Origin: Escherichia phage EC100
Strand: one strand, 5' to 3'
Sequence record: NC_105587.1
DNA: 64,000 bases
The position numbers and the translations under genes are program-made. Below the pieces are notes generated by a model. That model saw nothing but the letters and a program-made list of their open reading frames with translations. It was not told where the DNA came from and ran no database searches. Below, one piece after another: positions 644-54,386 of this stretch (position 1 is its first letter; each line of letters starts with the position of its first letter).

Positions 644-719
644 TGGTACACCCACTAGGACTTGAACCTAGAACCCTCCGCTTAAGAGGCGGTAGCTCTA
701 ACCATTGAGCTATGGATGT
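644..719 (-). tRNA. tRNA-Lys (anticodon CUU)
   Basis: Minus-strand cloverleaf: 7-bp acceptor stem (ACATCCA/TGGGTGT), D-stem GCTC/GAGC, anticodon loop CTCTTAA, T-arm CTAGG-TTCAAGT-CCTAG, encoded 3' CCA. Confidence 0.7.
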
Positions 720-896
720 ATTAAATTACTTTTTCCAGTTCATCAGCTATGGCTTTGATTTTTTCAAAGTTTACATCACTAATAATGATACCTTCCAGTG
801 ATAGAGATATTCTAGCATTTTTCGTAGCAGATTCTTTTATCTGCTCTATATCTTCTGGAGTAAACTCTCTACGTTCCATAGCTAACCTACCTTATT

Positions 897-973
897 TGGC
901 GCGACCGATGGGATTTGAACCCACATTCCCTCCCGTGACAGGGGAGTACCATTACCAAGCCAGCCCCGGTCGC
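897..973 (-). tRNA. tRNA-Asp (anticodon GUC)
   Basis: Perfect 7-bp acceptor stem GCGACCG/CGGTCGC, anticodon stem CTCCC/GGGAG with loop CTGTCAC, T-loop TTCAAAT, encoded CCA. Confidence 0.75.
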
Positions 974-982
974 ATAATTCAT

Positions 983-1168
983 TTACTCAGCTTTGAGTTT
1001 TTCAATAGCTGCATTAAGTTCTTTAAGAAACTCTTTTCGTACATTAAGACGGTTGAGACTTACTAGTATATCATGTTTAAGTTCTTCGATGTATTTCTTC
1101 TCAACTTCAATATTGTTGATAGTGCTATCACGATGAACTTCTAGCTGCGCAATTACATTCTTGGACAT
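983..1168 (-). CDS. hypothetical small coiled-coil protein (61 aa)
   Basis: ATG start preceded by GAGGAA ribosome-binding site; sits between tRNA genes. Confidence 0.4.
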   Translation of the reverse strand: MSKNVIAQLEVHRDSTINNIEVEKKYIEELKHDILVSLNRLNVRKEFLKELNAAIEKLKAE

Positions 1169-1270
1169 GCTTGTTTCCTCAGTTATTAATGAAAATGGTA
1201 TCTGTGGCTGGATTCGATGTCAGCAATGATAGCTGGTTGGCTACCGGTTTACTTAACTCTACACAGAATT

Positions 1271-1353
1271 TGGCGGGCCGTGTAGGATTCGAACCTACGT
1301 TGTCTTTCGACATGGATTAACAGTCCACCGCCAAACCGCTTGGCTAACGACCC
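1271..1353 (-). tRNA. tRNA with anticodon GUU (Asn-type) but a 13-nt variable arm
   Basis: Acceptor GGGTCGT/ACGGCCC, D-stem GCCA/TGGC, anticodon stem GTGGA/TCCAT, loop CTGTTAA, extra arm GTC-GAAA-GAC, T-arm GTAGG-TTCGAAT-CCTAC, CCA. 83 nt. Confidence 0.5.
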
Positions 1354-1505
1354 TGAATTTGTATTGCTGACTAGGATTTTCACCTAGACGGAGTTAGCAC
1401 CGTAGCGTGTAGCGGCATACCTCTCCAAACCGTGCCTCATCTTTCAATTACGGAGACAGTGTTCCTACGCGTGCCTGAATTGATTTAACAATTCTTTCAG
1501 CAAAT

Positions 1506-1581
1506 TGGACGACCGCATGAGATTTGAACTCACATAAAAAGGATTTGCAATCCTTCGCCTAAGCCATTCAGCCAACGGTCG
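1506..1581 (-). tRNA. tRNA-Cys (anticodon GCA)
   Basis: Acceptor CGACCGT/GCGGTCG, anticodon stem AAGGA/TCCTT with loop TTGCAAA, T-arm GTGAG-TTCAAAT-CTCAT, encoded CCA. Confidence 0.7.
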
Positions 1582-1650
1582 GTTTATCTTGTTCTGTCAT
1601 GTTGCTTCTCCAGTTCAATTTATGTAATTATTATACAGAACTTTTGGAAA

Positions 1651-1923
1651 CTAAGCAACTACATTTTTTAAGAATTTGATGCCTTTCTTTTTCTTCTTAT
1701 ATTTCCACGTTAATGGATTCTGTCGATTATGAACGCTTGAGATCTTTGTCTCGTCAAAGTTCTTCAATACCATGTAATCACAAGATAATTGTTTTAATGG
1801 AATGTGATCACCGTCAAAAGCGTATACATAAGGCTGTTGACTAGCACGATAATGATAGACTTTGTTAATTCTACGTTTCAGCAACTTATCCGCGCAGTAA
1901 ATAAAGAAGTTTTCAGGATGCAT
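1651..1923 (-). CDS. hypothetical protein (about 90 aa)
   Basis: Track ORF 1651..1938; internal ATG at 1923 has a GAGGGAG ribosome-binding site, so the start was moved there. Confidence 0.4.
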   Translation of the reverse strand: MHPENFFIYCADKLLKRRINKVYHYRASQQPYVYAFDGDHIPLKQLSCDYMVLKNFDETKISSVHNRQNPLTWKYKKKKKGIKFLKNVVA

Positions 1924-1940
1924 CAGCAGCTCCCTCAATT

Positions 1941-2015
1941 TGGTGCACCCTGTTCGTATCGAACGAACCTCTCAAGCTCTTCAGGCAAGCGCTAATCCAT
2001 CTCAGCTAAAGGTGC
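1941..2015 (-). tRNA. tRNA-like element, anticodon arm not resolvable (possible pseudo-tRNA)
   Basis: Good acceptor stem (GCACCTT/AGGGTGC), T-arm GTTCG-TTCGATA-CGAAC and 3' CCA, but no clean 5-bp anticodon stem could be folded by hand. Confidence 0.3.
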
Positions 2016-2101
2016 AAATTTTGGCAGGGGTAAAGGTATTCGAAACCTTTTCATGGGTTTTGGAGGCCCATTTGCAACCTATGCGTACCCCAATTATTAA
2101 T

Positions 2102-2176
2102 TGGCACACCCAACGAGGATCGAACTCGTGTTCCCACTGTGAAAGAGTGGTGTCCTAACCGCTAGACGATAGGTGC
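2102..2176 (-). tRNA. tRNA-Glu (anticodon UUC)
   Basis: Acceptor GCACCTA/TGGGTGT (two G-U pairs), anticodon stem CCACT/AGTGG with loop CTTTCAC, T-arm ACGAG-TTCGATC-CTCGT, CCA. Confidence 0.65.
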
Positions 2177-2183
2177 ATTAAAT

Positions 2184-2271
2184 TGGTGGGCGTTAATGGA
2201 GTCGAACCACTCGAGTCGCAATGACCAGGGATTTACAATCCCCTCCGCTACCACTTACGGAATAAACGCCC
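2184..2271 (-). tRNA. tRNA-Tyr (anticodon GUA), long variable arm
   Basis: Acceptor GGGCGTT/AACGCCC, anticodon stem GGGGA/TCCCC with loop TTGTAAA, long extra arm, T-loop TTCGACT, CCA. 88 nt. Confidence 0.7.
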
Positions 2272-2352
2272 ATATTTAGAAGTATTCAAATACTAGTTTA
2301 AACACTTTTAAATATGTTTCCAAATTAGATAACTATTATATCAAGTTTTAAG

Positions 2353-2391
2353 GCACTGAGCAAGTAAGATTTTGAAGAACTTGCTCAGTGC
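2353..2391 (-). terminator. stem-loop with 13-bp perfect stem, downstream of 2400..2675
   Basis: GCACTGAGCAAGT ... ACTTGCTCAGTGC inverted repeat; flanking U-tract weak, so possibly a processing or stability element. Confidence 0.4.
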
Positions 2392-2399
2392 TGTATTAG

Positions 2400-2675
2400 T
2401 TAGTCGAACTTAGGAGTGACAGATAAGGAGAACGGAAGTTCAAAAACTTCTTCACCCTCATTACTAACGGTAACTACACGACCTTTAAGTTCAGACATTG
2501 AAATATCAATATCAGCTTTTGCATCTGGAGACATGCCAGCTTCAACACATTTAGCTTTAACTTCCGGAAGGAGTTCTACATCGTAGAAATAAAGCCATTC
2601 AATCTCACCTTCCCAGCCTTCCCAGGATTTACAGATTGCACTTTCAATACCAGTTGCTATAACACGATTTTGCAT
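2400..2675 (-). CDS. hypothetical protein (91 aa)
   Basis: ATG start with GAAGGAG ribosome-binding site; followed by a 13-bp-stem hairpin. Confidence 0.45.
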   Translation of the reverse strand: MQNRVIATGIESAICKSWEGWEGEIEWLYFYDVELLPEVKAKCVEAGMSPDAKADIDISMSELKGRVVTVSNEGEEVFELPFSLSVTPKFD

Positions 2676-2765
2676 TCGTTAACTCCTTCATCAATTTATA
2701 TAACTATTATACCAGAAATTTAAAGCAAAAGGCAAGTACATTTTTAAAAATTCTGTTCGGAGGAG

Positions 2766-2972
2766 CTAAACTCCAGATTCTTCTGCCAAGTCTAGACTAA
2801 TAAGAGTTATAGCCATAATTGCTGCACCGTGTTCTTTTTCTCCGGTGTTTTTAGCAGAGTCTATAATAGTCTTAATCTGTTCGTAATAGCCTTTTACTTC
2901 TTGTTCAATACCTGCCTCGGCTATCATGCCTTTAGTCATGATTCGTTGCATAGTAATTTCACGGTTAGCCAT
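2766..2972 (-). CDS. hypothetical protein (68 aa)
   Basis: ATG-initiated ORF; its start overlaps the stop of a possible unlisted upstream small ORF (about 2965..3132). Confidence 0.4.
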   Translation of the reverse strand: MANREITMQRIMTKGMIAEAGIEQEVKGYYEQIKTIIDSAKNTGEKEHGAAIMAITLISLDLAEESGV

Positions 2973-3161
2973 GTTGTTTCTCCAGCTTCATTTTTAATAG
3001 TTTACAAATGAAATCAACGTCTTCATCTGTACCTAGATCTCTATCTTCAAGGGTTGCCTTGAAATTTTTCGTTAGTTCCATAAGAATAACTTCCCTAGAA
3101 CGACGTGTTGGCGGAGGTGGATGTCTATACATCTTAATTCCTTAACTTGGTAGGGGTTATA

Positions 3162-3845
3162 TCATCTATTTTTCTTAATACTTTTAGGATCTTTCCCTGT
3201 TAGGGACTTATACCTTTTCCTTAATCCAGTATCAGACAATCCTAGTTCTTTGGAGGCACGAATCCAGGAATATTTAGATACCCAGTACTCTATTTGCTCC
3301 ACAGTAATATCTGGATTTATAGTTATCTCTTTAGGAGTACATGATTTACAGTGTGTTGCTCTTGAGCTAATTTCGCAGTGACAAATAGCACACGTATTTA
3401 CAGTCCTTTCTGTATACCTGCCAATATTTTTGCCTGCATGAGTAGGTGTTAGTGCATGGCAATTTGGGCATAGGAAGGCTAAGTTATCCCATTCATTATT
3501 ATAGTGATTTCCATCCTTGTGTTCAAGTTCTAAAGGAATTGGTTTATCTAACCAACTTTCTAAGCCACAACTCTCACATTTATGTGGTTTTAGCCCCTCG
3601 TTAAGAATTTTATTCTTTAGTTTATAGGAAGAAATAGGGCTGCCGTTATATAAATACTCTGTTGCAGACTTATATTTATTATCATACTGCCTATTCGCAG
3701 GAATAACTACTATTCCTAGTTTTCCTAAATATGCTTCCAAAGTGTTCGAGGAGCAGGATAGCATTCTTGCTATCTCTGCTTTAGATTTTCCCTGAGCTAT
3801 CCACTGAGCTATTTCTTCCTTTCTATCTAGTATATCAGTTCTCAT
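3162..3845 (-). CDS. HNH homing endonuclease with N-terminal helix-turn-helix domain
   Basis: HNH motif region HKCESCG...ELEHKDGNHYNNEWDNLAFLCPNCH plus further Cys/His clusters; weak ribosome-binding site; located inside the tRNA island. Confidence 0.7.
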   Translation of the reverse strand: MRTDILDRKEEIAQWIAQGKSKAEIARMLSCSSNTLEAYLGKLGIVVIPANRQYDNKYKSATEYLYNGSPISSYKLKNKILNEGLKPHKCESCGLESWLDKPIPLELEHKDGNHYNNEWDNLAFLCPNCHALTPTHAGKNIGRYTERTVNTCAICHCEISSRATHCKSCTPKEITINPDITVEQIEYWVSKYSWIRASKELGLSDTGLRKRYKSLTGKDPKSIKKNR

Positions 3846-3868
3846 AGTTTATGACTTTATAATTAAGT

Positions 3869-3946
3869 TGGTGGCTCCCCGAGGATTCGAACCTACGTAC
3901 CTTCCGGTTATGAGCCGGGTGCTCATACCATATGAGCTTGAGAACC
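3869..3946 (-). tRNA. tRNA with anticodon CAU (Met or Ile2-type)
   Basis: Acceptor GGTTCTC/GGGAGCC, D-stem GCTC/GAGC, anticodon loop CTCATAA on a CCGG stem, T-loop TTCGAAT, CCA. T-stem pairs only partially. Confidence 0.5.
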
Positions 3947-3952
3947 AAAATC

Positions 3953-4041
3953 TGGCGGAAGAAGTGGGAATCGAACCCACAAGGCTATATTTCAAACCGA
4001 CAGATTAGCAATCTGCTGCAATACCGTTATGCTATTCTTCC
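3953..4041 (-). tRNA. tRNA-Ser (anticodon GCU), long variable arm
   Basis: Perfect acceptor GGAAGAA/TTCTTCC, anticodon stem GCAGA/TCTGT with loop TTGCTAA, long extra arm, T-arm GTGGG-TTCGATT-CCCAC, CCA. Confidence 0.7.
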
Positions 4042-4062: not shown

Positions 4063-4581
4063 TTAGAAATTTAGCTTCATAGCAAGAAAATTTTTCAAGT
4101 TTTCGGTAGACATCTCATCCACATCTACAGGAGAAACAAATCCATTTAATTTTCTAGCAAATTTTTCACCCGCAGGATCGTTGTCCCCGACAGCTACCAA
4201 TTTAAAAGGTAATAATTTCAGTTGCTTTAATAAGGCTTTTCCTGGAGAAGAACCCAACATTGCCAGGGCTGGATAACCAGCGTTATGTAACGCAACTGCC
4301 TTAAATACAGATTCAGCAATCAATACTACTTTTTCATCTCCATTGAGAGTTTCTAGTCCCCATACACACTGTGTAGTAGAATAGGTAAAATATTTAGCTT
4401 CAAAGGGGCACTTACCATGCCCTTTTGGAGCAGAAGGATTATAAGTCTGATAGCCTCTCAACATCCCAGAGAAGTCATACAACGGGACTGTTAGCCATCC
4501 TTCTGGACTTAACCAGCAATGATATTTATCTGTATCAAATCCCCTAGATAAGAGGTGCTGTGTTAGCTCATCAACATTCAT
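4063..4581 (-). CDS. Toprim-domain protein (primase-like catalytic core without zinc ribbon)
   Basis: Toprim signature VVLIAESVFKA (Glu) ... LVAVGDNDPAG (DxD); start moved to the ATG at 4581, which has a GAGAGAGGAA ribosome-binding site. Confidence 0.5.
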   Translation of the reverse strand: MNVDELTQHLLSRGFDTDKYHCWLSPEGWLTVPLYDFSGMLRGYQTYNPSAPKGHGKCPFEAKYFTYSTTQCVWGLETLNGDEKVVLIAESVFKAVALHNAGYPALAMLGSSPGKALLKQLKLLPFKLVAVGDNDPAGEKFARKLNGFVSPVDVDEMSTENLKNFLAMKLNF

Positions 4582-4756
4582 ATTTGGTTCCTCTCTCAAA
4601 TTTATAGATATATTATACAGAGAATTTAGCATTCAAGCAATCAAATTTTTTAACTTTTTAGAGGAAAATCATAGGGCACTTAAGGGTAGCAGATAAGTGG
4701 TGAGGACCAAAATTTGTGACCCCACTAAAAATCCGGGGGCAATTTTTAAAGACCCC

Positions 4757-4785
4757 TTGACATTTTCGCTGGGGTAGTGTAAAGT
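4757..4785 (+). promoter_or_regulatory. sigma70-type promoter (TTGACA, 17 bp, TAAAGT) for the plus-strand low-complexity module
   Basis: TTGACATTTTCGC -35 core shared with the element at 32904; 60 nt upstream of the GGAGG ribosome-binding site. Confidence 0.45.
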
Positions 4786-4848
4786 ATATGTTATGGATGA
4801 GTGATCAAAGAGACACACATTTTCTGTATACTAGGAGGTGTCAAAAAA

Positions 4849-5840
4849 TGACAGAAGAAGTAGCTAAGAGTCCTGAGACCGTCGCTAGCGTTGCGGCAGA
4901 ACTGCACCGTCACGAGGAATCAGATAAGAAAAAGTGGGAGAAGGTCAGAGCCTACGAAGAAAAACATCGTGAACACGATGATGAAGACGATGAAGATGAC
5001 GATGATGAACATTGTCATAAATATGGAAAACATAAAATGCAAGAACCAGTAAACGTATTTACTAATGGCTTCCCTGGCCTACTAGGTGGTTACCCAGCAA
5101 ACGTAGGTGCTTTCGGTGGTGAAGGTATGGGACTATTCGGAGCTATCCTAATCGGCGCTCTATTAACAGGCGGATTCGGTGGTTTCGGTGGATTCGGTGG
5201 ACGTGGTGTTGTTGGTGAAGGTACCGCAGTTGATGCAGTACTTCAGAACCAAGATACCGCTAGTATTCTAGCAGCTATCAACACTACTCGTACAGAAGCT
5301 AACCAGGGTACCGGAGCTGTTTTAAGCGCAGTTAACAATGGTTTTAGCCAGACATCCCAAAACCAGAGCCGTGATACTCAGTCTGTATTAACTACGATCT
5401 ATGGTACAGGTGCTAATCTGTCTAATCAGATCTGCCAGGAAACCCGCAACGTTATTCAGGGTCAGTTCGATCTTTCTCGCCAGATTGATCAATCTTTCGC
5501 AGCTAACCAGATAGCTCGTGCACAAGATAAATTTGATTCTGCACAGATAGCTTTCCAGCAGACTTTACAAACTAATAACCAGTTTGCCGCTGTTCAGGCT
5601 CAGATGTGTGCTAACCAGAACTCTCTGGAACGTCAGATCGCTGAATGTTGCTGTGAACTTCAGACTGCGATCGCTGGTGTAACTACTGCGCGTATCCAGG
5701 ATGAGTTAGATGCATGTCGCCTACGTGAAGCAATCGCTGCGGGTAGCGGTGCTAACGGTCAGGTAATTAATCAAATCGCTTTAAGTCTTGGTGCTATCAC
5801 TCAGACTCTGGCTGGTCTGCAGGCTAAACTGCCGGCTTAA
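4849..5840 (+). CDS. low-complexity protein: acidic N-terminus, Gly-zipper hydrophobic segment, Q/N/T-rich Cys-containing C-terminus
   Basis: GGAGG ribosome-binding site 9 nt upstream of the ATG at 4849; acidic run DDEDDEDDDDE, GLFGAILIGALLTGGFGGFGGFGG, roughly 200 aa Q/N/A/T-rich tail with CCC. Confidence 0.55.
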
Positions 5841-5861
5841 TATTAAGGGGAGGAGCCCATT

Positions 5862-6275
5862 ATGAGTAAATATGGTTTTGTAAATAACGGACTTAATCAA
5901 AGTATGGGCTCCCAGCAGCCCATTCCGGGTCTGGATAACCCCTACTTACAACAGTTGCAACAGCGTTTAGCAGAAGCGCAACAGATGCAGCAACAACTCC
6001 AGCAAAACCCTGGAAGTGTGAGTCCTATGCAAATGATGCAGCAAATGAGCGGGCAGTCGCAAATGCCTCAACAAATGCAGCAACAGATGCCGCAGCAAGT
6101 TCAGCAACAAACCCAACAACCGCAGGTTTCTGCGGAAGGACAGGCAGTACTAGCCCTTTTCGAAGACTTCGCAAAGACAGAGGATGGGAAACAGCTTGTA
6201 TCACTTATGGGTAAGTTTAATAGCTTCTGCCAAAGCCAAATTGCAAAAGCTCAAAATAGCGGTAATAACTCCTAA
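5862..6275 (+). CDS. glutamine-rich protein (137 aa)
   Basis: GGAGG ribosome-binding site; QQLQQRLAEAQQMQQQLQQ...QQMQQQMPQQVQQQTQQPQ; codon usage of highly expressed genes. Confidence 0.55.
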   Translation: MSKYGFVNNGLNQSMGSQQPIPGLDNPYLQQLQQRLAEAQQMQQQLQQNPGSVSPMQMMQQMSGQSQMPQQMQQQMPQQVQQQTQQPQVSAEGQAVLALFEDFAKTEDGKQLVSLMGKFNSFCQSQIAKAQNSGNNS

Positions 6276-6284
6276 GGAGGGATT

Positions 6285-6479
6285 ATGTGTTGCAGAAAAT
6301 CTGTTTCGTGCTGCCCAATGCCTGTAGCACGTTGTTGCTCTCCAGCAATGTTTACGCAAATACCGGCGTTCAATCCGTTTGCCTTTAAGCCTACTCTTAT
6401 CCTGCCCCCTAGAGTAGATTTTCAGTCAAGATTGGCCTCCCGTATGGGTGGTTGCTGTAATAAGAGTATATGGTTCTGA
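6285..6479 (+). CDS. cysteine-rich small protein with four vicinal CC pairs (64 aa)
   Basis: AGGAGG ribosome-binding site; MCCRKSVSCCPMPVARCCSP...GGCCNK; followed by an intrinsic terminator. Confidence 0.45.
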   Translation: MCCRKSVSCCPMPVARCCSPAMFTQIPAFNPFAFKPTLILPPRVDFQSRLASRMGGCCNKSIWF

Positions 6480-6495
6480 AGAACCAAACAATAAA

Positions 6496-6529
6496 GCCCC
6501 TAGTCGAAAGACTTAGGGGCTTTTCTTTT
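6496..6529 (+). terminator. intrinsic terminator ending the plus-strand low-complexity module
   Basis: GCCCCTAGTC-GAAA-GACTTAGGGGC hairpin followed by TTTTCTTTT. Confidence 0.75.
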
Positions 6530-6540
6530 ATCTTAAATAC

Positions 6541-6574
6541 AGAAAAGCCCTGCGCTCTCCAGGAAACGCAGGGC
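6541..6574 (-). terminator. intrinsic terminator after the SPFH gene
   Basis: GCCCTGCG ... CGCAGGGC hairpin with a U-tract on the minus strand; convergent with the 6496 terminator. Confidence 0.65.
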
Positions 6575-6599
6575 TTACTTCAGATGTTACATGCGGGTA

Positions 6600-7581: not shown

Positions 7582-7656
7582 TGGCCGAGGTGACAGGATT
7601 CGAACCTGCATAAAGGAATTTAGAAGACTCCTGCCTCTCCCTTAGACTACACCCCG
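7582..7656 (-). tRNA. tRNA-Arg (anticodon UCU)
   Basis: Acceptor CGGGGTG/CACCTCG, anticodon stem GGAGT/ATTCC with loop CTTCTAA, T-arm GCAGG-TTCGAAT-CCTGT, CCA. Confidence 0.7.
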
Positions 7657-8157
7657 TTTAAGTATTTTTAAGAACTCTCGTAAAAACTCTTAAAAATACA
7701 GACGATACCGGGAGAGTCATAAGTCTCACTCATTAAGTATTTCAAGACAAAATACAGTAACGTCTATTATTTTCCAGTTTAAGTCAAGGTGACTTAGTGG
7801 TTATGTCCTGCGGTATATTGAGGACTCGGTTAGGTTAGGGTCATGACTCCCCACCTTTTTGCTGCTACTCAACAGGAGTTATCGCGAATTACCTGTGCTA
7901 TTGTGCACCATTAGTGGCATCTCTCATGCCAGCATTTCCCACTTTATGTATAGCTTGAAAAACTACTCCGATATGGAGGAAAAACTTCACTATCTAGAAT
8001 ACCTTCTAAAGTTCTTCTTTAGCCTGGACATAGTTAAATCGTAATAAAACTATTCAGCAGACTGGTTGGTTAGTCTGGAACCAACTACCGCGTGGTTTAG
8101 GCAGTGCGCAACTAACCTCGGAAGCTTTTACGTTAAAAGCATCAGTTATCCAGTTCT

Positions 8158-8229
8158 TACCGACCGTAGGATTCGAACCTACATCTTCCACCAGTTACGG
8201 CTTGATAATACCAATTATACTAGGACGGC
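8158..8229 (-). tRNA. tRNA-like element (degenerate, possible pseudo-tRNA)
   Basis: T-arm GTAGG-TTCGAAT-CCTAC identical to the one in the 1271-1353 tRNA, acceptor stem with one mismatch, no clean anticodon stem, no CCA. Confidence 0.25.
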
Positions 8230-20993: not shown

Positions 20994-21022
20994 TTGACAT
21001 TTGCCCTTGAATAAGCTATAAT
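20994..21022 (+). promoter_or_regulatory. sigma70 consensus promoter upstream of nrdD
   Basis: TTGACA, 17 bp, TATAAT in the AT-rich divergent region between phoH and nrdD. Confidence 0.6.
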
Positions 21023-31881: not shown

Positions 31882-32853
31882 ATGACCAATGTAAAAGAAT
31901 TTATTAAACGCTGTCAAGAAGCATATTATCAAGGCATGTCTTTAATCTCTGATGAAGAATATGATCGCCTGGTAAAACGCTTCCCGTTAGAGGAAGAGAT
32001 CGGGCCTAAGGGTGATATTCCACACCTATATCGTATGTATTCTTTACAGAAAGTTTATTATAACCGTGGGGATAAACCACCATTTAATCCTTTAGGTCAG
32101 GTAGAAACTGATAAGTTAGATGGTTGTGCAATTTCTCTGCTATATATTAACGGTGAATTTGTTCAAGCATTAACCCGTGGTAATGGTATTCTGGGAAATG
32201 ATGTAACAAGCAACGTAAGATTGCTGAACATTCCTAAAAAGATTTCCCAAAAAGTACCTACTCAAATCACTGGTGAAGTTCTAATTACAAAAGAAGTAGA
32301 AAATAAACGTAACTTTGCCTCTGGTGCTATTAACCTCAAAGATAGTGATGCTTTCGTACAACGCATTGGAGAAGGCGGTTTAATCTTTGTTGCTTACGGT
32401 ATCCAATGTTCTGCTGAATCTGTAGGTATTACAGAAGCATATTTAAAAGATATGCTTTGGCTAGAGAAGGAGAACTTCTTAACAGTTGTTAATGTGCGTT
32501 CCTTTTTTAAATGGATTCCTACGGACGGTAAAGTTGTTCGTATTAATGACAATAACAAATTCTTCCGTGAAGGCTGGACTAATAAATTCCCTCGTGGAGC
32601 ATTCGCCATTAAAGAGGATGAAGAAGGCGAAATTACAACTCTTACTAAAGTTGAATGGCAGGTAGGGGCTTCTGGTAAAGTAACTCCAGTTGGTTATTTC
32701 GAACCGGTAATTATTGATGATGCTACAATTGTTAAAGCGACTCTTAATAACGTTGATTATATTAACTCTCTTGATCTAGAGATCGGTTGCCAGATTCGAG
32801 TGATTCGTGCTGGTGGTGTAATCCCGTGCATAGTAGAGCGAGTATACGATTAA
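31882..32853 (+). CDS. NAD-dependent DNA ligase, N-terminal adenylation/OB part (split gene)
   Basis: LigA-type adenylation block KLDGCAISLLYINGEFVQALTRGNG; own T5-class promoter upstream. Confidence 0.8.
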   Translation: MTNVKEFIKRCQEAYYQGMSLISDEEYDRLVKRFPLEEEIGPKGDIPHLYRMYSLQKVYYNRGDKPPFNPLGQVETDKLDGCAISLLYINGEFVQALTRGNGILGNDVTSNVRLLNIPKKISQKVPTQITGEVLITKEVENKRNFASGAINLKDSDAFVQRIGEGGLIFVAYGIQCSAESVGITEAYLKDMLWLEKENFLTVVNVRSFFKWIPTDGKVVRINDNNKFFREGWTNKFPRGAFAIKEDEEGEITTLTKVEWQVGASGKVTPVGYFEPVIIDDATIVKATLNNVDYINSLDLEIGCQIRVIRAGGVIPCIVERVYD

Positions 32854-32903: not shown

Positions 32904-32932
32904 TTGACATTTTCGCCGCTTAGGTATATACT
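32904..32932 (+). promoter_or_regulatory. sigma70-type promoter (TTGACA, 17 bp, TATACT) between the ligase halves
   Basis: TTGACATTTTCGC core identical over 13 nt to the 4757 element. Confidence 0.45.
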
Positions 32933-32996
32933 ATTATCATTCAGTTGAGGGATAGAAAGTTATGGCGAGGGTAAGCAAAGTTAGTTAAAATTGTAG

Positions 32997-33025
32997 TTGC
33001 TAAATGCTTAAATACTTGCTATAAT
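32997..33025 (+). promoter_or_regulatory. T5 early-class promoter upstream of the ligase C-terminal gene
   Basis: TTGCTA, 17 bp, TATAAT followed by ATTTATATAAATT and the AGGAAG ribosome-binding site. Confidence 0.6.
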
Positions 33026-33055: not shown

Positions 33056-33835
33056 ATGAAAATCGAAATTCCAACACAATGTCCCTCTTGTGGTTCTAAG
33101 CTAGATCTTGTCAACGGACAATTATTCTGTCGTAATAAGTCCAACTGTCCAGCGCAATCAAGTAAGTTAATTGAGAACTTCTGTTCAAAAATGAAGTTAA
33201 AGGGCTTTGGCCCAAAAACTATTGAGAAGCTGGAGCTGACGAAGATTTCAGAACTATTTTACCTAACCGAAGAAGATTTGGTTAGAGCCGTGGGTAGCAA
33301 GGTTGCCGCTAAGTTAATTAGCGAATTAAATACTAAAGTTCGCGGAGACATTGACTTTGGTTCAGTTCTCGGTTCTTTAGGAATCCCTCTAATTGGAGAG
33401 GTTGCAGCAAAGAAATTGTCCCAAAATTGCACCAGTTTTCAAGATGTGAAGGCTGACGGCAAGGCTGGAGAAAACTATAAAGCCTGGCTAAATTCCCCAC
33501 AAGGCAAGGATGTTATCGAATTACCGTGGAAATTCACAACTGGTATTAAAGGTGCTAAAGCTGAGGTCATCATTACTGATGGTCTAGTAGCCCAGCCAAA
33601 TGGAATCGCGGTGTGTATTACCGGGTCTTTGCAAGATTTTGCAAATCGAACGGATGCAACAAACTATTTAGAAGGTCTAGGATATACGGTTAAGAAATCC
33701 GTTACCAAAGACGTCAAATACCTAATCTGTGAGGATGAATCTAAGCGTTCTTCCTCATCTTATAAGAAAGCCGAAACGAATGGGATAGAAATCCTGTCGA
33801 TTAAAGAACTATTGGAGAAAAATAATAATGTCTAA
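33056..33835 (+). CDS. NAD-dependent DNA ligase, C-terminal zinc finger/HhH/BRCT part (split gene)
   Basis: Zinc finger CPSCGS...C...C, helix-hairpin-helix region, BRCT-like C-terminus; AGGAAG ribosome-binding site and own promoter. Confidence 0.75.
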   Translation: MKIEIPTQCPSCGSKLDLVNGQLFCRNKSNCPAQSSKLIENFCSKMKLKGFGPKTIEKLELTKISELFYLTEEDLVRAVGSKVAAKLISELNTKVRGDIDFGSVLGSLGIPLIGEVAAKKLSQNCTSFQDVKADGKAGENYKAWLNSPQGKDVIELPWKFTTGIKGAKAEVIITDGLVAQPNGIAVCITGSLQDFANRTDATNYLEGLGYTVKKSVTKDVKYLICEDESKRSSSSYKKAETNGIEILSIKELLEKNNNV

Positions 33836-37099: not shown

Positions 37100-39667
37100 T
37101 TGAAAATCGCAGTAGTTGATAAAGCTCTAAATAACACTCGTTACGATAAATATTTCCAGCTATACGGCGAGGAAGTTGATGTATTTCATATGTGTAACGA
37201 GAAGTTATCTGGTCGTTTGCTTAAAAAGCACATTACTATTGGAACACCAGAAAACCCATTTGATCCGAATGATTATGATTTTGTTATACTGGTAGGTGCC
37301 GAACCTTTTCTGTACTTTGCAGGTAAGAAAGGTATTGGTGATTATACCGGTAAACGTGTAGAGTATAATGGATATGCTAACTGGATTGCGAGTATCAGCC
37401 CAGCCCAACTACACTTTAAACCTGAAATGAAACCAGTTTTCGATGCAACAGTAGAGAATATCCACGATATTATCAATGGTCGTGAGAAGATTGCAAAAGC
37501 TGGTGATTATCGTCCTATTACTGACCCTGATGAGGCAGAAGAATATATCAAGATGGTGTATAATATGGTTATCGGACCTGTCGCATTCGACTCCGAAACC
37601 TCAGCACTATACTGTCGAGATGGTTATCTGCTCGGTGTTTCTATGTCTCACCAAGAGTATCAGGGTGTATATATCGATTCTGATTGTCTCACAGAGGTTG
37701 CAGTATATTATCTCCAGAAAATTCTGGATAGTGAAAACCACACTATTGTTTTTCACAACTTGAAGTTTGATATGCACTTTTATAAGTACCATCTGGGACT
37801 TACTTTTGATAAAGCGCATAAAGAACGCAGGCTTCATGATACCATGTTGCAACACTATGTTCTAGATGAACGTCGTGGTACTCATGGCTTGAAATCTCTA
37901 GCGATGAAGTACACCGATATGGGTGACTATGACTTCGAACTAGATAAGTTTAAAGATGATTACTGCAAAGCACATAAAATTAAGAAAGAAGATTTCAGTT
38001 ATGATCTGATTCCTTTTGATATTATGTGGCCATATGCTGCAAAAGATACAGATGCTACTCTACGTCTTCATAACTTCTTCTTACCAAAAATTGAGAAGAA
38101 TGAAAAACTTTGCAGTCTGTATTATGATGTTCTAATGCCTGGTTGTGTATTTCTCCAGCGTGTTGAGGATCGTGGTGTACCTATTTCTATTGATCGTTTA
38201 AAAGAAGCTCAGTACCAATTAACCCATAATCTGAATAAAGCTCGTGAAAAGCTGTATACTTATCCAGAAGTAGTTCAGCTAGAGAAAGATCAGAACGAGG
38301 CATTTAACCCTAACTCTGTTAAGCAGCTACGTGTTCTTCTGTTTGACTATGTTGGCTTAACTCCAACAGGTAAACTGACGGATACTGGAGCAGACTCTAC
38401 AGATGCAGAAGCTCTGAACGAATTGTCTACGCAGCATCCAATTGCTAAGACTCTACTAGAGATTCGTAAGCTGACTAAGCTGATCTCTACTTATGTTGAG
38501 AAAATTCTTCTGAGCATTGATGCTGATGGTTGCATTCGTACTGGCTTCCACGAACACATGACTACTTCTGGTCGTCTGAGTTCTTCTGGTAAACTGAACC
38601 TGCAACAGTTACCTCGTGATGAATCTATTATCAAGGGTTGTGTAGTAGCTCCTCCTGGGTATCGTGTAATTGCATGGGACTTAACAACTGCGGAAGTTTA
38701 TTATGCTGCTGTTCTATCTGGTGATAGAAATATGCAACAAGTATTTATCAACATGAGAAATGAACCAGATAAATACCCCGACTTCCACTCTAACATCGCA
38801 CACATGGTATTTAAGCTCCAATGCGAGCCTCGTGATGTTAAAAAGTTATTCCCAGCTCTGCGTCAAGCAGCTAAAGCAATCACCTTTGGTATTCTGTATG
38901 GTTCTGGCCCAGCTAAAGTAGCTCATTCTGTTAACGAAGCTCTTCTGGAACAGGCTGCTAAGACAGGCGAACCGTTTGTAGAATGTACGGTTGCAGATGC
39001 GAAGGACTATATCGAAACTTACTTCGGTCAGTTCCCGCAGCTTAAGCGTTGGATTGATAAGTGCCATGATCAGATCAAGAATCATGGGTTTATCTATAGT
39101 CACTTTGGTCGTAAGCGTCGTCTGCACAATATCCACTCCGAAGACCGTGGTGTTCAGGGTGAAGAAATTCGTTCTGGATTTAACGCAATCATTCAGTCTG
39201 CTTCCTCTGATAGCCTCCTTTTAGGTGCTGTAGATGCAGATAATGAGATCATTTCTCTTGGCCTGGAACAAGAGATGAAGATTGTTATGCTGGTTCATGA
39301 CTCCGTAGTTGCTATTGTTCGTGAAGATTTGATCGACCAATACAATGAAATCCTGATTCGTAATATCCAAAAAGACCGTGGTATTAGTATTCCTGGCTGT
39401 CCGATTGGTATTGATTCTGATTCTGAGGCTGGAGGTTCTCGTGACTATTCCTGTGGTAAGATGAAGAAGCAGCATCCATCAATCGCTTGTATTGATGATG
39501 ATGAATATACTCGTTATGTCAAAGGTGTGTTACTTGATGCAGATTTCGAGTATAAGAAACTAGCTGCAATGGATAAAGAGCATCCAGATCATAGCAAATA
39601 CAAGGATGATAAGTTTATTGCTGTATGTAAAGATTTGGATAACGTAAGAAGGATTCTCGGTGCTTGA
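37100..39667 (+). CDS. DNA polymerase, family A with 3'-5' exonuclease (T5 DNA polymerase-like)
   Basis: 855 aa; exo motif FDSETSALY, motif B RQAAKAITFGILYG, motif C LVHDS; TTG start with AGGAG ribosome-binding site. Confidence 0.95.
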   Translation: MKIAVVDKALNNTRYDKYFQLYGEEVDVFHMCNEKLSGRLLKKHITIGTPENPFDPNDYDFVILVGAEPFLYFAGKKGIGDYTGKRVEYNGYANWIASISPAQLHFKPEMKPVFDATVENIHDIINGREKIAKAGDYRPITDPDEAEEYIKMVYNMVIGPVAFDSETSALYCRDGYLLGVSMSHQEYQGVYIDSDCLTEVAVYYLQKILDSENHTIVFHNLKFDMHFYKYHLGLTFDKAHKERRLHDTMLQHYVLDERRGTHGLKSLAMKYTDMGDYDFELDKFKDDYCKAHKIKKEDFSYDLIPFDIMWPYAAKDTDATLRLHNFFLPKIEKNEKLCSLYYDVLMPGCVFLQRVEDRGVPISIDRLKEAQYQLTHNLNKAREKLYTYPEVVQLEKDQNEAFNPNSVKQLRVLLFDYVGLTPTGKLTDTGADSTDAEALNELSTQHPIAKTLLEIRKLTKLISTYVEKILLSIDADGCIRTGFHEHMTTSGRLSSSGKLNLQQLPRDESIIKGCVVAPPGYRVIAWDLTTAEVYYAAVLSGDRNMQQVFINMRNEPDKYPDFHSNIAHMVFKLQCEPRDVKKLFPALRQAAKAITFGILYGSGPAKVAHSVNEALLEQAAKTGEPFVECTVADAKDYIETYFGQFPQLKRWIDKCHDQIKNHGFIYSHFGRKRRLHNIHSEDRGVQGEEIRSGFNAIIQSASSDSLLLGAVDADNEIISLGLEQEMKIVMLVHDSVVAIVREDLIDQYNEILIRNIQKDRGISIPGCPIGIDSDSEAGGSRDYSCGKMKKQHPSIACIDDDEYTRYVKGVLLDADFEYKKLAAMDKEHPDHSKYKDDKFIAVCKDLDNVRRILGA

Positions 39668-40157
39668 TTTCAAATTGCCCGTCTATGCGTTACGGGCGTT
39701 TGTATCAATTGAGCAAGAAGGTGATTATTCCGTAATTACAACAAGATATAATAAATATGTGCTAGATAACAGGAAGTTGCCTGGCACGTTTTCTCAACGT
39801 AGGCTTATTCTATTTGAGAAACGGAAAGAATTACCGTACAAGCTCTATCCTATTAGAGGTAGAATATCAATGTTGTCCCAATTAGTTGGGTCAAAGCGTA
39901 GCCAATTTATAGATTCTGATGGAAATCTTATTAATTGGAAGAAAACTACGTTCTATGATGTTGTTACCTCTAAAGTTTTGCATTCAGCTAGAATTTATAA
40001 CGGAAAATACCAATGCTATGTAGCTAAAGTTCCATATCCATTTGTATTATCCTATGTTCCAGCGTATATAAGCTATATTCTGGTAAATAATAGCCCTGTT
40101 ATTTATCAAGTCCATCAAGAGGAGCCTGAAATTCCTAGACTTAGAATAAAATTATGA
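39660..40157 (+). CDS. hypothetical protein (165 aa)
   Basis: GTG start overlapping the polymerase stop; no motif recognised. Confidence 0.4.
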   Translation: MLDFKLPVYALRAFVSIEQEGDYSVITTRYNKYVLDNRKLPGTFSQRRLILFEKRKELPYKLYPIRGRISMLSQLVGSKRSQFIDSDGNLINWKKTTFYDVVTSKVLHSARIYNGKYQCYVAKVPYPFVLSYVPAYISYILVNNSPVIYQVHQEEPEIPRLRIKL

Positions 40158-52328: not shown

Positions 52329-54386
52329 TTACCTTATATGGATATACCCACTATTTAGGTCTATCTTCATCTTGTAGTATGCCTCAGGATTCCCGGATAA
52401 CGCAGCATTTCTATCATAAATGATGTTAACACCGATCTGAGATAAGAAAGCATTTCCTGCTACAATTTTATCTGCCGTCACCGTCCCATTAACAATCATG
52501 TTTCCGTGGAGAACCATTGCAGGGCTAACCCAACCAGACCCATTCCATTGCCTTGTAAATGCTGATTGTGGAGCATTACTATTAAATTCGGTTAATACAT
52601 CATATCTAACAGGAGGACTACCAAAGTTATTCTGGAAGAAGGCATTAGCCTGCCCATCATCCCAGCCCCCAAGACCAGGAATACCTAAGGAGTACATTCC
52701 AGGACCACGTTGTCCATCATGTCCTATAGTACCCTCAGTACCACTCCACTGAACTACATCAGACCAGCTAGTACCTTCAAGAAGTTTGTTAGTAACGGGA
52801 TCAAGCGTACCTGTAGTGGCATAGATATTCTGTGTCATATCTGTACGGTTAGGTGGAGTTTTTGACCAACCAGGAGGCGGATAATCTTGTTCTAGTGGTT
52901 TAGCAGGTAGAGATGTTGCTAACTTATAAACAAATACTGTTTGCTTACCTTGCATACCAGTACCCAGATCTACATCACCATTAGGAGTTCCAATAACTAC
53001 TCCACTAGAAATACGTAGCACATCACCATCATAACGAATCCACTGTGTGGCATTACCAATGTCTAATTTAGCTTTGGCAGAGGTATTATCCATACCCATC
53101 CAAATACCAGAGTTATTATCCCCCCAAGATTTACCTTGAGTGTAAATTGCTGGATTATCCTTACCAGATAAGTTAGTCATGATAAAGTTCGCAGCATTAA
53201 TATCTCTAGTAATTACTTTACCATCAACGTTAACAACACGGTTTATAGGGTCAAAAGAAATAGGTGCTTTTCCTTCTTCATCTAGCAGACCAATGTTAAT
53301 AGCACCAGTAGCTGCGTCGATTAAGAATGTCTGTCTCCAGATTTCTCCATCTTTCATGCTGCCCTTAATAAAGGCATAATTAACATCAATACCCGTCTCA
53401 TTGACAAAGCTGTTGTCTAGAGGAGTATCTTCATTAAGTATAAACGTTACAGGAGCTGATTCTGTTATATCTTGCTTATTTGGTCCCCAGGCAATTGATG
53501 ATACCTTAAAAGTATGCTCAACTTTCCATGGGAATGATATAATCGTTGCAGCTCTAGCAGCCCCAACGTTTATCTTTTGAGCTTTAGCCCAGCCAGTCTT
53601 AGCGTATTCTTCAGAGTTTATATAAGTAACCAGAAATTCACGGACATTAGCACCCGCACCACGTTCCCAGTCCCACTCTATTCTGACATCATATCGTTCC
53701 TTACCATCTGCAATTCGTGCAGCTTTAAAGGCAATGTTAGTAGGTGCAGTAGGTGGTACAAAATTATAAGCTACAGTGAAAACGCTAGGATATTCATAAT
53801 AACCAGATGAGTCAACTGTAACACCATCTGGCATCGTAACTTGACCAGATATTCTGATCTTATAGTCGCCAACAGGAACACCACCAAATTTGATAGTAGG
53901 TCCCAGCGCACCTATATAATACTTAACCCATTCACTATCTTCTGATGCAGTACTTTTTAATTCAATAGTGCAGTAACTAGCTTCACCAGTAGTATCTACA
54001 ACAACTATTGGAGCACCAACACCTACGTCGACGGGTTCTGATTCAGATCTTGCTGCAACAATTATTGGCTTTTCCTTTGTTCTAAAGTTAGTTTCATTAG
54101 AGAGGTTGATACCAATTTTTGCATTTAAAAGCTCTGAGTCAATAATTGAGTCATAGAAAGCCCCCTGAATCTCATAGGAGGTAGAGGGGGTTAGATTATT
54201 AATCATTACGAAGAAAGTATCTATACCGGTGTAATCACGTCTATCTATACTTTCTCCTATTTTTAACCAAAAAGATCTACCAATAACATCATAATCAGTA
54301 TAAATGGAGTGCTGGACATAAGCCAAAGTATATCCAGTCATTATACTATTTAAGACCATTTTGGCTGGTGCATTATTTGAAATCAT
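52329..54386 (-). CDS. tail tip protein (T5 pb4-like)
   Basis: About 685 aa after moving the start to ATG 54386 (TAATG overlap with the pb3-like stop); call rests on size and synteny. Confidence 0.6.
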   Translation of the reverse strand: MISNNAPAKMVLNSIMTGYTLAYVQHSIYTDYDVIGRSFWLKIGESIDRRDYTGIDTFFVMINNLTPSTSYEIQGAFYDSIIDSELLNAKIGINLSNETNFRTKEKPIIVAARSESEPVDVGVGAPIVVVDTTGEASYCTIELKSTASEDSEWVKYYIGALGPTIKFGGVPVGDYKIRISGQVTMPDGVTVDSSGYYEYPSVFTVAYNFVPPTAPTNIAFKAARIADGKERYDVRIEWDWERGAGANVREFLVTYINSEEYAKTGWAKAQKINVGAARAATIISFPWKVEHTFKVSSIAWGPNKQDITESAPVTFILNEDTPLDNSFVNETGIDVNYAFIKGSMKDGEIWRQTFLIDAATGAINIGLLDEEGKAPISFDPINRVVNVDGKVITRDINAANFIMTNLSGKDNPAIYTQGKSWGDNNSGIWMGMDNTSAKAKLDIGNATQWIRYDGDVLRISSGVVIGTPNGDVDLGTGMQGKQTVFVYKLATSLPAKPLEQDYPPPGWSKTPPNRTDMTQNIYATTGTLDPVTNKLLEGTSWSDVVQWSGTEGTIGHDGQRGPGMYSLGIPGLGGWDDGQANAFFQNNFGSPPVRYDVLTEFNSNAPQSAFTRQWNGSGWVSPAMVLHGNMIVNGTVTADKIVAGNAFLSQIGVNIIYDRNAALSGNPEAYYKMKIDLNSGYIHIR

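Follow-up and report, generated by a model that had tools for sequence, protein, structure and literature searches.

An identical 13-nt string, TTGACATTTTCGC, occurs twice in a 64,000-nt stretch of DNA from Escherichia phage EC100 (NC_105587.1; the whole stretch is referred to as the window), at positions 4757-4769 and 32904-32916, both on the + strand. This raises the question whether the two sites share a regulatory element or whether two ordinary promoters happen to look alike. An earlier note on this DNA had proposed that the string may define a separately regulated promoter class or a factor-binding site. Very probably, both sites are ordinary -35/-10 promoters of the host sigma-70 type, orthologous to the phage T5 promoters P12 (site 1) and P-K28b (site 2), and the 7 nt that they share beyond the -35 box are coincidental. 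Sequence anatomy, orthology and conservation carry this reading, and from them we infer the start sites, an UP-element role and activity in vivo.

An exact search of both strands yielded exactly two copies of the 13-mer in the window and located them where the earlier note had placed them, each followed by a -10-like hexamer. At both sites the first six nucleotides of the string, TTGACA, match the -35 consensus in 6/6 positions, and the distance to the -10-like hexamer is exactly 17 nt. These hexamers, TAAAGT at site 1 and TATACT at site 2, match TATAAT in 4/6 and 5/6 positions, respectively. Both retain the A at position 2 and the T at position 6, and neither site has the TG of an extended -10 element. 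Compared to the canonical E. coli sigma-70 promoter (TTGACA-17-TATAAT), the two sites therefore have the same -35 element and the same spacing and differ in their -10 elements. Both promoters are intergenic and face their downstream genes. P12 is located 91 nt from the ATG at 4848, the start of a gene encoding a 330-aa low-complexity protein, and P-K28b is located in the ligA-ligB gap, about 150 nt from ligB. These surroundings, too, are as the earlier note had described them.

The richly annotated T5 record AY543070 was used as reference annotation. In the stretches of the window compared around both sites, identity to Escherichia phage EC122 (ON185583, genus Tequintavirus) is 100%, with base 32001 of EC122 corresponding to window base 1; identity to T5 in the ligase region amounts to 98.6%. 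TTGACATTTTC is found twice in AY543070, at 37973 and 66386, and the two positions fall within the features 'promoter P12' (37954-38028, + strand, upstream of T5.077) and 'promoter P-K 28b' (66366-66440, + strand, in the ligA-ligB gap and 18 nt upstream of 'promoter P-K 28a'). The same annotation of P-K28b and P-K28a is given in a second, independent T5 record, AY692264. Site 2 is identical to T5 P-K28b over the whole 75-nt feature and occupies the same position, with no detectable difference; judged by sequence and position, it is P-K28b in a sister phage. Site 1 is identical to T5 P12 in 72/75 nt, with the same -35 and -10 hexamers and the same spacing, and is found in the same place, between P15a, which points the other way, and the T5.077 homologue. 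All three substitutions fall into the spacer, where T5 has TTTTCTCCTGGG and the window has TTTTCGCTGGGG. P12 of T5 reads TTGACATTTTCTC, so that the string common to both T5 sites comprises 11 nt, not 13, and AY543070 contains one exact copy of the 13-mer. The 75-nt T5 promoter features are laid out from -55 to +20, a layout that was checked on P-N25, whose presumed start coincides with feature position 56. According to this layout, transcription would start from the A at 4793 for P12 and from the A at 32939 for P-K28b. The earlier note was right in reading both elements as promoters and, by orthology, both are already known, as they are annotated in T5. P-K28b is reportedly among the T5 promoters that Gentz and Bujard selected by function (J Bacteriol, 1985), and the P-K28 names are said to originate there. 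Klimuk et al. (2020) cite Gentz and Bujard (1985) as the source of in vitro T5 promoters; no mention of K28a or K28b in the context of T5 was found in the literature searched. The coordinates of all features are given in Table 1.

Table 1. Promoter elements, genes and terminators around the two sites and the nrdD promoter (window coordinates).
Feature	Position	Strand	Remarks
A/T-rich block CAATTTTTAAAG	4740..4751	+	about 5 nt upstream of the P12 -35; candidate UP-element-like region
P12 -35 hexamer TTGACA	4757..4762	+	invariant in 22 orthologues; within the T5 P12 feature
P12 spacer TTTTCGCTGGGGTAGTG, 17 nt	4763..4779	+	first 7 nt complete the 13-mer; TTTT invariant, next CGCTG variable
P12 -10 hexamer TAAAGT	4780..4785	+	invariant in orthologues
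P12 predicted start, A	4793	+	position 56 of the T5 P12 feature
P12 unit: T5.077-like (4848-5840), T5.078-like (5862-6275), T5.079-like (6285-6479)	4848..6479	+	open reading frames and T5 annotation
Predicted intrinsic terminator of the P12 unit: GC-rich hairpin, then TTTTCTTTT	6494..6529	+	read from the sequence; T5 counterpart 39678-39720
Second hairpin	6545-6576		would serve the - strand
P15a orthologue, divergent early-class promoter TTGCTT-N17-TATAAT	4612..4640	-	read from the sequence by comparison with T5 P15a
nrdD promoter TTGACA-N17-TATAAT (TTGACATTTGCCC)	20994..21022	+	orthologue of unnamed T5 feature 53884-53958
ligA (NAD-dependent DNA ligase subunit A)	31882..32853	+	open reading frame; T5 annotation
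P-K28b -35 hexamer TTGACA	32904..32909	+	within the T5 'promoter P-K 28b' feature
P-K28b spacer TTTTCGCCGCTTAGGTA, 17 nt	32910..32926	+	13-mer exact in 28/36 orthologous sequences
P-K28b -10 hexamer TATACT	32927..32932	+	TATACT or TATAAT in 36/36 orthologous sequences
P-K28b predicted start, A	32939	+	position 56 of the 75-nt T5 feature
P-K28a orthologue, early-class TTGCTA-N17-TATAAT, then ATTTATATAAATTGA	32997..33025	+	downstream tandem partner of P-K28b
ligB (NAD-dependent DNA ligase subunit B)	33056..33835 (alternative start 33053)	+	first gene after P-K28b/P-K28a

P12 is the sole rightward promoter in a long leftward block. The divergent P15a orthologue belongs to a toprim/primase-like gene on the minus strand (4063-4632), and P15A has been detected as an early promoter by primer extension (Klimuk et al., 2020). 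The products of the T5.077-like and T5.078-like genes match phrog_8119 and phrog_7894 (function not assigned), and neither has a match in Pfam. The GC content of the unit is 45-48% as compared to 35-41% in its flanks, and the encoded proteins contain acidic, Gly-rich and Gln-rich low-complexity regions. The T5 counterpart of the hairpin following the third gene is annotated as 'efficient bidirectional rho-independent transcription terminator'. From about -75 onward, P12 travels with its genes where the left neighbour differs; the latter is nadR in Klebsiella phage 150049, while other genes are found there in KookSpook and in an IMG/VR Epseptimavirus-like contig. The A/T-rich block upstream of the -35 hexamer, which may act as an UP element, accompanies P12 even with a differing upstream neighbour gene. 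Of the 20 P12 orthologues tabulated, 19 have the block unchanged and one has a single substitution in it. HildyBeyeler (Bas33) is devoid of the T5.077-079 genes, and its P12 remnant has a degraded -35 element (TTGATT) and a different spacer. This decay is consistent with P12 existing to drive the T5.077-079 cassette. Promoter, three genes and terminator (4716-6529) appear to behave like an autonomous cassette.

Some further features of this region were recorded. Around P12, four G/C runs alternate at intervals of 15-18 nt in otherwise AT-rich DNA (CCCC 4720-4723, GGGGG 4735-4739, CCCC 4753-4756, GGGG 4771-4774). They are largely conserved, and no compensatory changes were seen. Ten minus-strand tRNA genes (647-4041 and 7585-8229) lie among small open reading frames and an HNH endonuclease gene (3162-3845), in what corresponds to the T5 tRNA region. 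At the gathering threshold, Rfam identified only tRNAs in the window and no family overlapping either site.

The ligA-ligB gap measures 199-202 nt; the start codon of ligB differs between the two T5 records (ATG versus TTG). P-K28b shares this gap with P-K28a, and the arrangement is kept across genera: a promoter of the TTGAC(A/G) type and, about 90 nt further on, a TTGC promoter of the early type were seen in the split-ligase gap of seven of the sequences compared (at about 1330-1500 in these), including genomes in which LigB is 55-72% identical. The conservation of this tandem across genera suggests that P-K28b and P-K28a are not redundant. The leader of P-K28b also contains a mini-ORF of 8 codons (32968-32994, + strand; ATGGCGAGGGTAAGCAAAGTTAGTTAA) with GAGGG 10 nt upstream. 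This candidate was rejected, as neither its start codon nor its frame is kept in distant relatives.

According to the earlier note, both elements differ from the dominant TTGCTT/TTGCTA early class. The annotated T5 promoters were extracted and 32 of them were anchored on their -10 hexamers; the 23 with a TTGC-type -35 element were used for a leave-one-out profile. The signature of these 23 early-type promoters consists of aaaaatt upstream, TTGCTT and TATAAT, followed by at-t--ATAAATT-a-GAGA. Scored against their own profile, the early members mostly had upstream scores of about +6 to +17 bits and downstream scores of about +7 to +27 bits, with a few outliers. For P12, in comparison, the scores were -6.0 bits (upstream A-tract region), -8.8 (spacer) and -7.3 (downstream), and for P-K28b they were -9.2, -9.8 and +4.4, in this order. 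These values resemble those of P-J5 and P-G25 (late) and of P-H22 (pre-early). P-J5 and P-G25 have been shown to be late promoters, P-J5 by primer extension (Klimuk et al., 2020). The profile scores thus confirm the difference from the early class. Early promoters such as P-N25, P-K28a and P15a have the host sigma-70 polymerase and the 17-nt spacing in common with P12 and P-K28b. However, they possess an A-tract near -45, TTGCTT or TTGCTA, a perfect TATAAT and the ATAAATT-GAGAG box, none of which is present in P12 or P-K28b. Compared to dinucleotide shuffles and counted on both strands, TTGCTT is commoner than expected in the whole window (81 versus 59.9; z = +2.7) and TTGACA is rarer (21 copies versus 41.7 +/- 6.7; z = -3.1).

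A third promoter of the TTGACA type, missing from the earlier note, is located 30 nt upstream of nrdD and has the consensus sequence in both hexamers. Its TTGACA is followed by TTT here and in a few genomes, by TCC in most relatives and by TCT in T5. A three-member 'TTGACATTT' class including the nrdD promoter was rejected, since TTT at this position is limited to few genomes.

It is possible, if rather doubtful, that P12, P-K28b and the nrdD promoter form a temporally distinct class by virtue of their overall architecture and not of the 13-mer. Such promoters might outlast the early shut-off or be late-like, which overlaps with the sigma-70 reading rather than excluding it. A class of this kind would fit the missing early signature, as it is missing in the late promoters P-J5 and P-G25, and the TTGAC-type/early-type tandem conserved across genera in the ligA-ligB gap. 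P-K28b and P-J5 also have GTTATTGACA-N17-TATACT in common; in its spacer and flanks, however, P-J5 is unrelated to both P12 and P-K28b, and it belongs to the late structural region outside the window. In the discriminator, all known early promoters contain ATATT, the proposed target of gpT5.026 (Klimuk et al., 2020), whereas at this place P12 has ATATG and P-K28b has ATTAT, again in favour of a distinct class. On the other hand, a TTGACA -35 element occurs in all three temporal regions, in P-H22 (pre-early), in P12, the nrdD promoter and P-K28b (early region) and in P-J5 (late). In addition, the -10 hexamer of the nrdD promoter is at consensus, and those of P12 and P-K28b are not. As to timing, the literature searched yielded neither genome-wide T5 start-site data nor time-resolved 5'-end data for P12 and P-K28b, which likewise counts against a distinct class; one Tequintavirus RNA-seq paper covers a single time point of Bas33, a phage without the P12 unit.

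A repeated 13-mer in itself is commonplace: 391 distinct 13-mers are present at least twice in the window, as compared to 122 +/- 15 in dinucleotide shuffles. For TTGACATTTTCGC in particular, the count expected in shuffles was 0.01. Among the 21 TTGACA sites of the window, the probability of a pair with the same next 7 nt is about 0.023 (P ~0.023); counting the three promoter-like sites alone, with their spacers taken as random, lowers it to P ~3.5e-4. The 7-nt match beyond the -35 box is modestly unusual, not overwhelming, and was noticed post hoc. If spacers are random, the lower of these values counts against pure coincidence, and we do not consider it comfortable. The genome-wide search for the 13-mer that the earlier note had called for was run on EC122. 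By exact search, its full 108,723-bp genome contains two copies only, and no third. Partial overlaps between TTGACA promoters are common, P-K28b and P-J5 with their GTTATTGACA-N17-TATACT being one such pair.

About 320-440 T5-like GenBank genomes matched the two regions, from which 22 P12 orthologues (Tequintavirus and Epseptimavirus) and 36 sequences orthologous to P-K28b were sampled. Across the 22 P12 sequences, no variation was seen in TTGACATTTT, in the -10 hexamer or in the leader. A contiguous variable patch occurs only once in P12, at CGCTG (positions 11-13 of the 13-mer and the next two bases), and the variants found at positions 11-13 are TGC (twice), TGT, CTC (in T5) and AGC. At the position of P-K28b in distant genera (LigB 55-72% identical), a -35 element TTGAC(A/G) and a -10 element TATA(C/A)T are still present, 17 nt apart. 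With LigB at 55-59% identity the spacer is unrelated, and only TTTTC survives in two sequences with 72%; these distant spacers start with ACACGTC, TCGCGAC, TACACAT or TTTTCAT. As hexamers and spacing are kept while spacers vary, selection is visible in the sequences on the elements of a sigma-70 promoter and not on the 13-mer. In the genomes sampled, the two spacers drifted independently, which argues against a link between the sites. Among close relatives, TTTT of P12 and TTTTC of P-K28b are conserved, which may mean that a T-rich proximal spacer is truly preferred, or simply that these genomes have diverged little.

These patterns bear directly on the earlier proposal that the 13-mer is a class-defining or factor-binding element, and do not support it. 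In its specific form, a site for a phage or host repressor or activator over the -35 element that co-regulates the T5.077 unit and ligB-D5, we regard it as very improbable. A protein site would explain the exact 13-nt identity at two promoters and nowhere else in 108.7 kb, the P ~3.5e-4 among the three TTGACA promoters, and the conservation of TTTT(C) at both sites in close relatives. Yet P12 varies most at positions 11-13, and these differ in T5, which has only 11 nt in common between its two sites, and distant P-K28b orthologues have replaced the spacer and retained the hexamers. Two copies, with no third, give no further support, the sequence after TTGACA of the nrdD promoter is not conserved either, and neither site has a significant dyad or direct-repeat structure. 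Single candidates for protein sites were rejected as well. An operator-like dyad at P12 (4719-4732 / 4762-4775, 11/14 complementary) was equalled in 36% of shuffles, and P-K28b yielded no inverted repeat. TGTGA at 4715-4719, near -70.5 of P12, reads as a CRP-like half-site but is not conserved, relatives having TGTAC or TGTTA there, and an FNR-like reading of TTGAC-N4 failed since the sequence contains no second half-site.

Even less probable is a shared ancestry of the two sites, with one promoter arising as a copy of the other (through duplication or short-patch gene conversion) and the 13-mer as what is left of the copy. The 13-nt island of identity would suit a copied segment, as would the TAAAG that precedes the -35 hexamer by 5-6 nt at both sites. 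However, the offset of TAAAG differs by 1 nt between the sites, and the P12 unit stands out from the rest of the region in base composition and as a cassette of its own. In global alignment, the flanks of the two sites did no better than shuffled sequence (z = 0.8 upstream and 0.25 downstream), and outside the 13-mer and the -10 hexamer 21/62 positions match as compared to about 16 expected by chance. This lack of flank similarity beyond chance argues against duplication, and flanking homology is likewise missing as a support for the 13-mer as a class or factor site.

With both sites read as sigma-70 promoters, the E. coli RNA polymerase holoenzyme would bind and start at about 4793 and 32939. 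Given the perfect -35 hexamer, the optimal 17-nt spacer and the imperfect -10 hexamer, binding is expected to occur mainly through the -35 contact, and both promoters have an A/T-rich block a few bases upstream of the -35 hexamer. P12 would drive a self-contained rightward unit of three genes and a terminator among leftward early genes. P-K28b, as the upstream member of the tandem with P-K28a, would read into ligB and the downstream replication genes. The 13-mer would then be composed of a selected consensus -35 element, a T-run with which the spacer begins and three bases (CGC) under no constraint, and the additional 7-nt identity would represent a coincidence between two independently evolving spacers, not a shared cis-element.

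As such, the finding matters little and mainly shows that real promoters can be rediscovered from raw sequence. Without comparative support, a short exact repeat opening with a consensus -35 box should not be taken for a regulatory motif. What interest remains lies in the temporal switch of T5 transcription, and the ligA-ligB tandem could serve as a built-in comparison of two promoter architectures. P12, P-K28b and the conserved TTGAC-type/early-type tandem in the split-ligase gap may hint that the TTGACA promoters of the early region are a separate functional class escaping the early control, for which a route through the ATATT discriminator and gpT5.026 has been proposed; we consider this suggestion unlikely. 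The T-run that is conserved where the spacer begins might play a part in such an escape. If true, the ligB-D5 replication block and the T5.077 cassette would be given a different time window.
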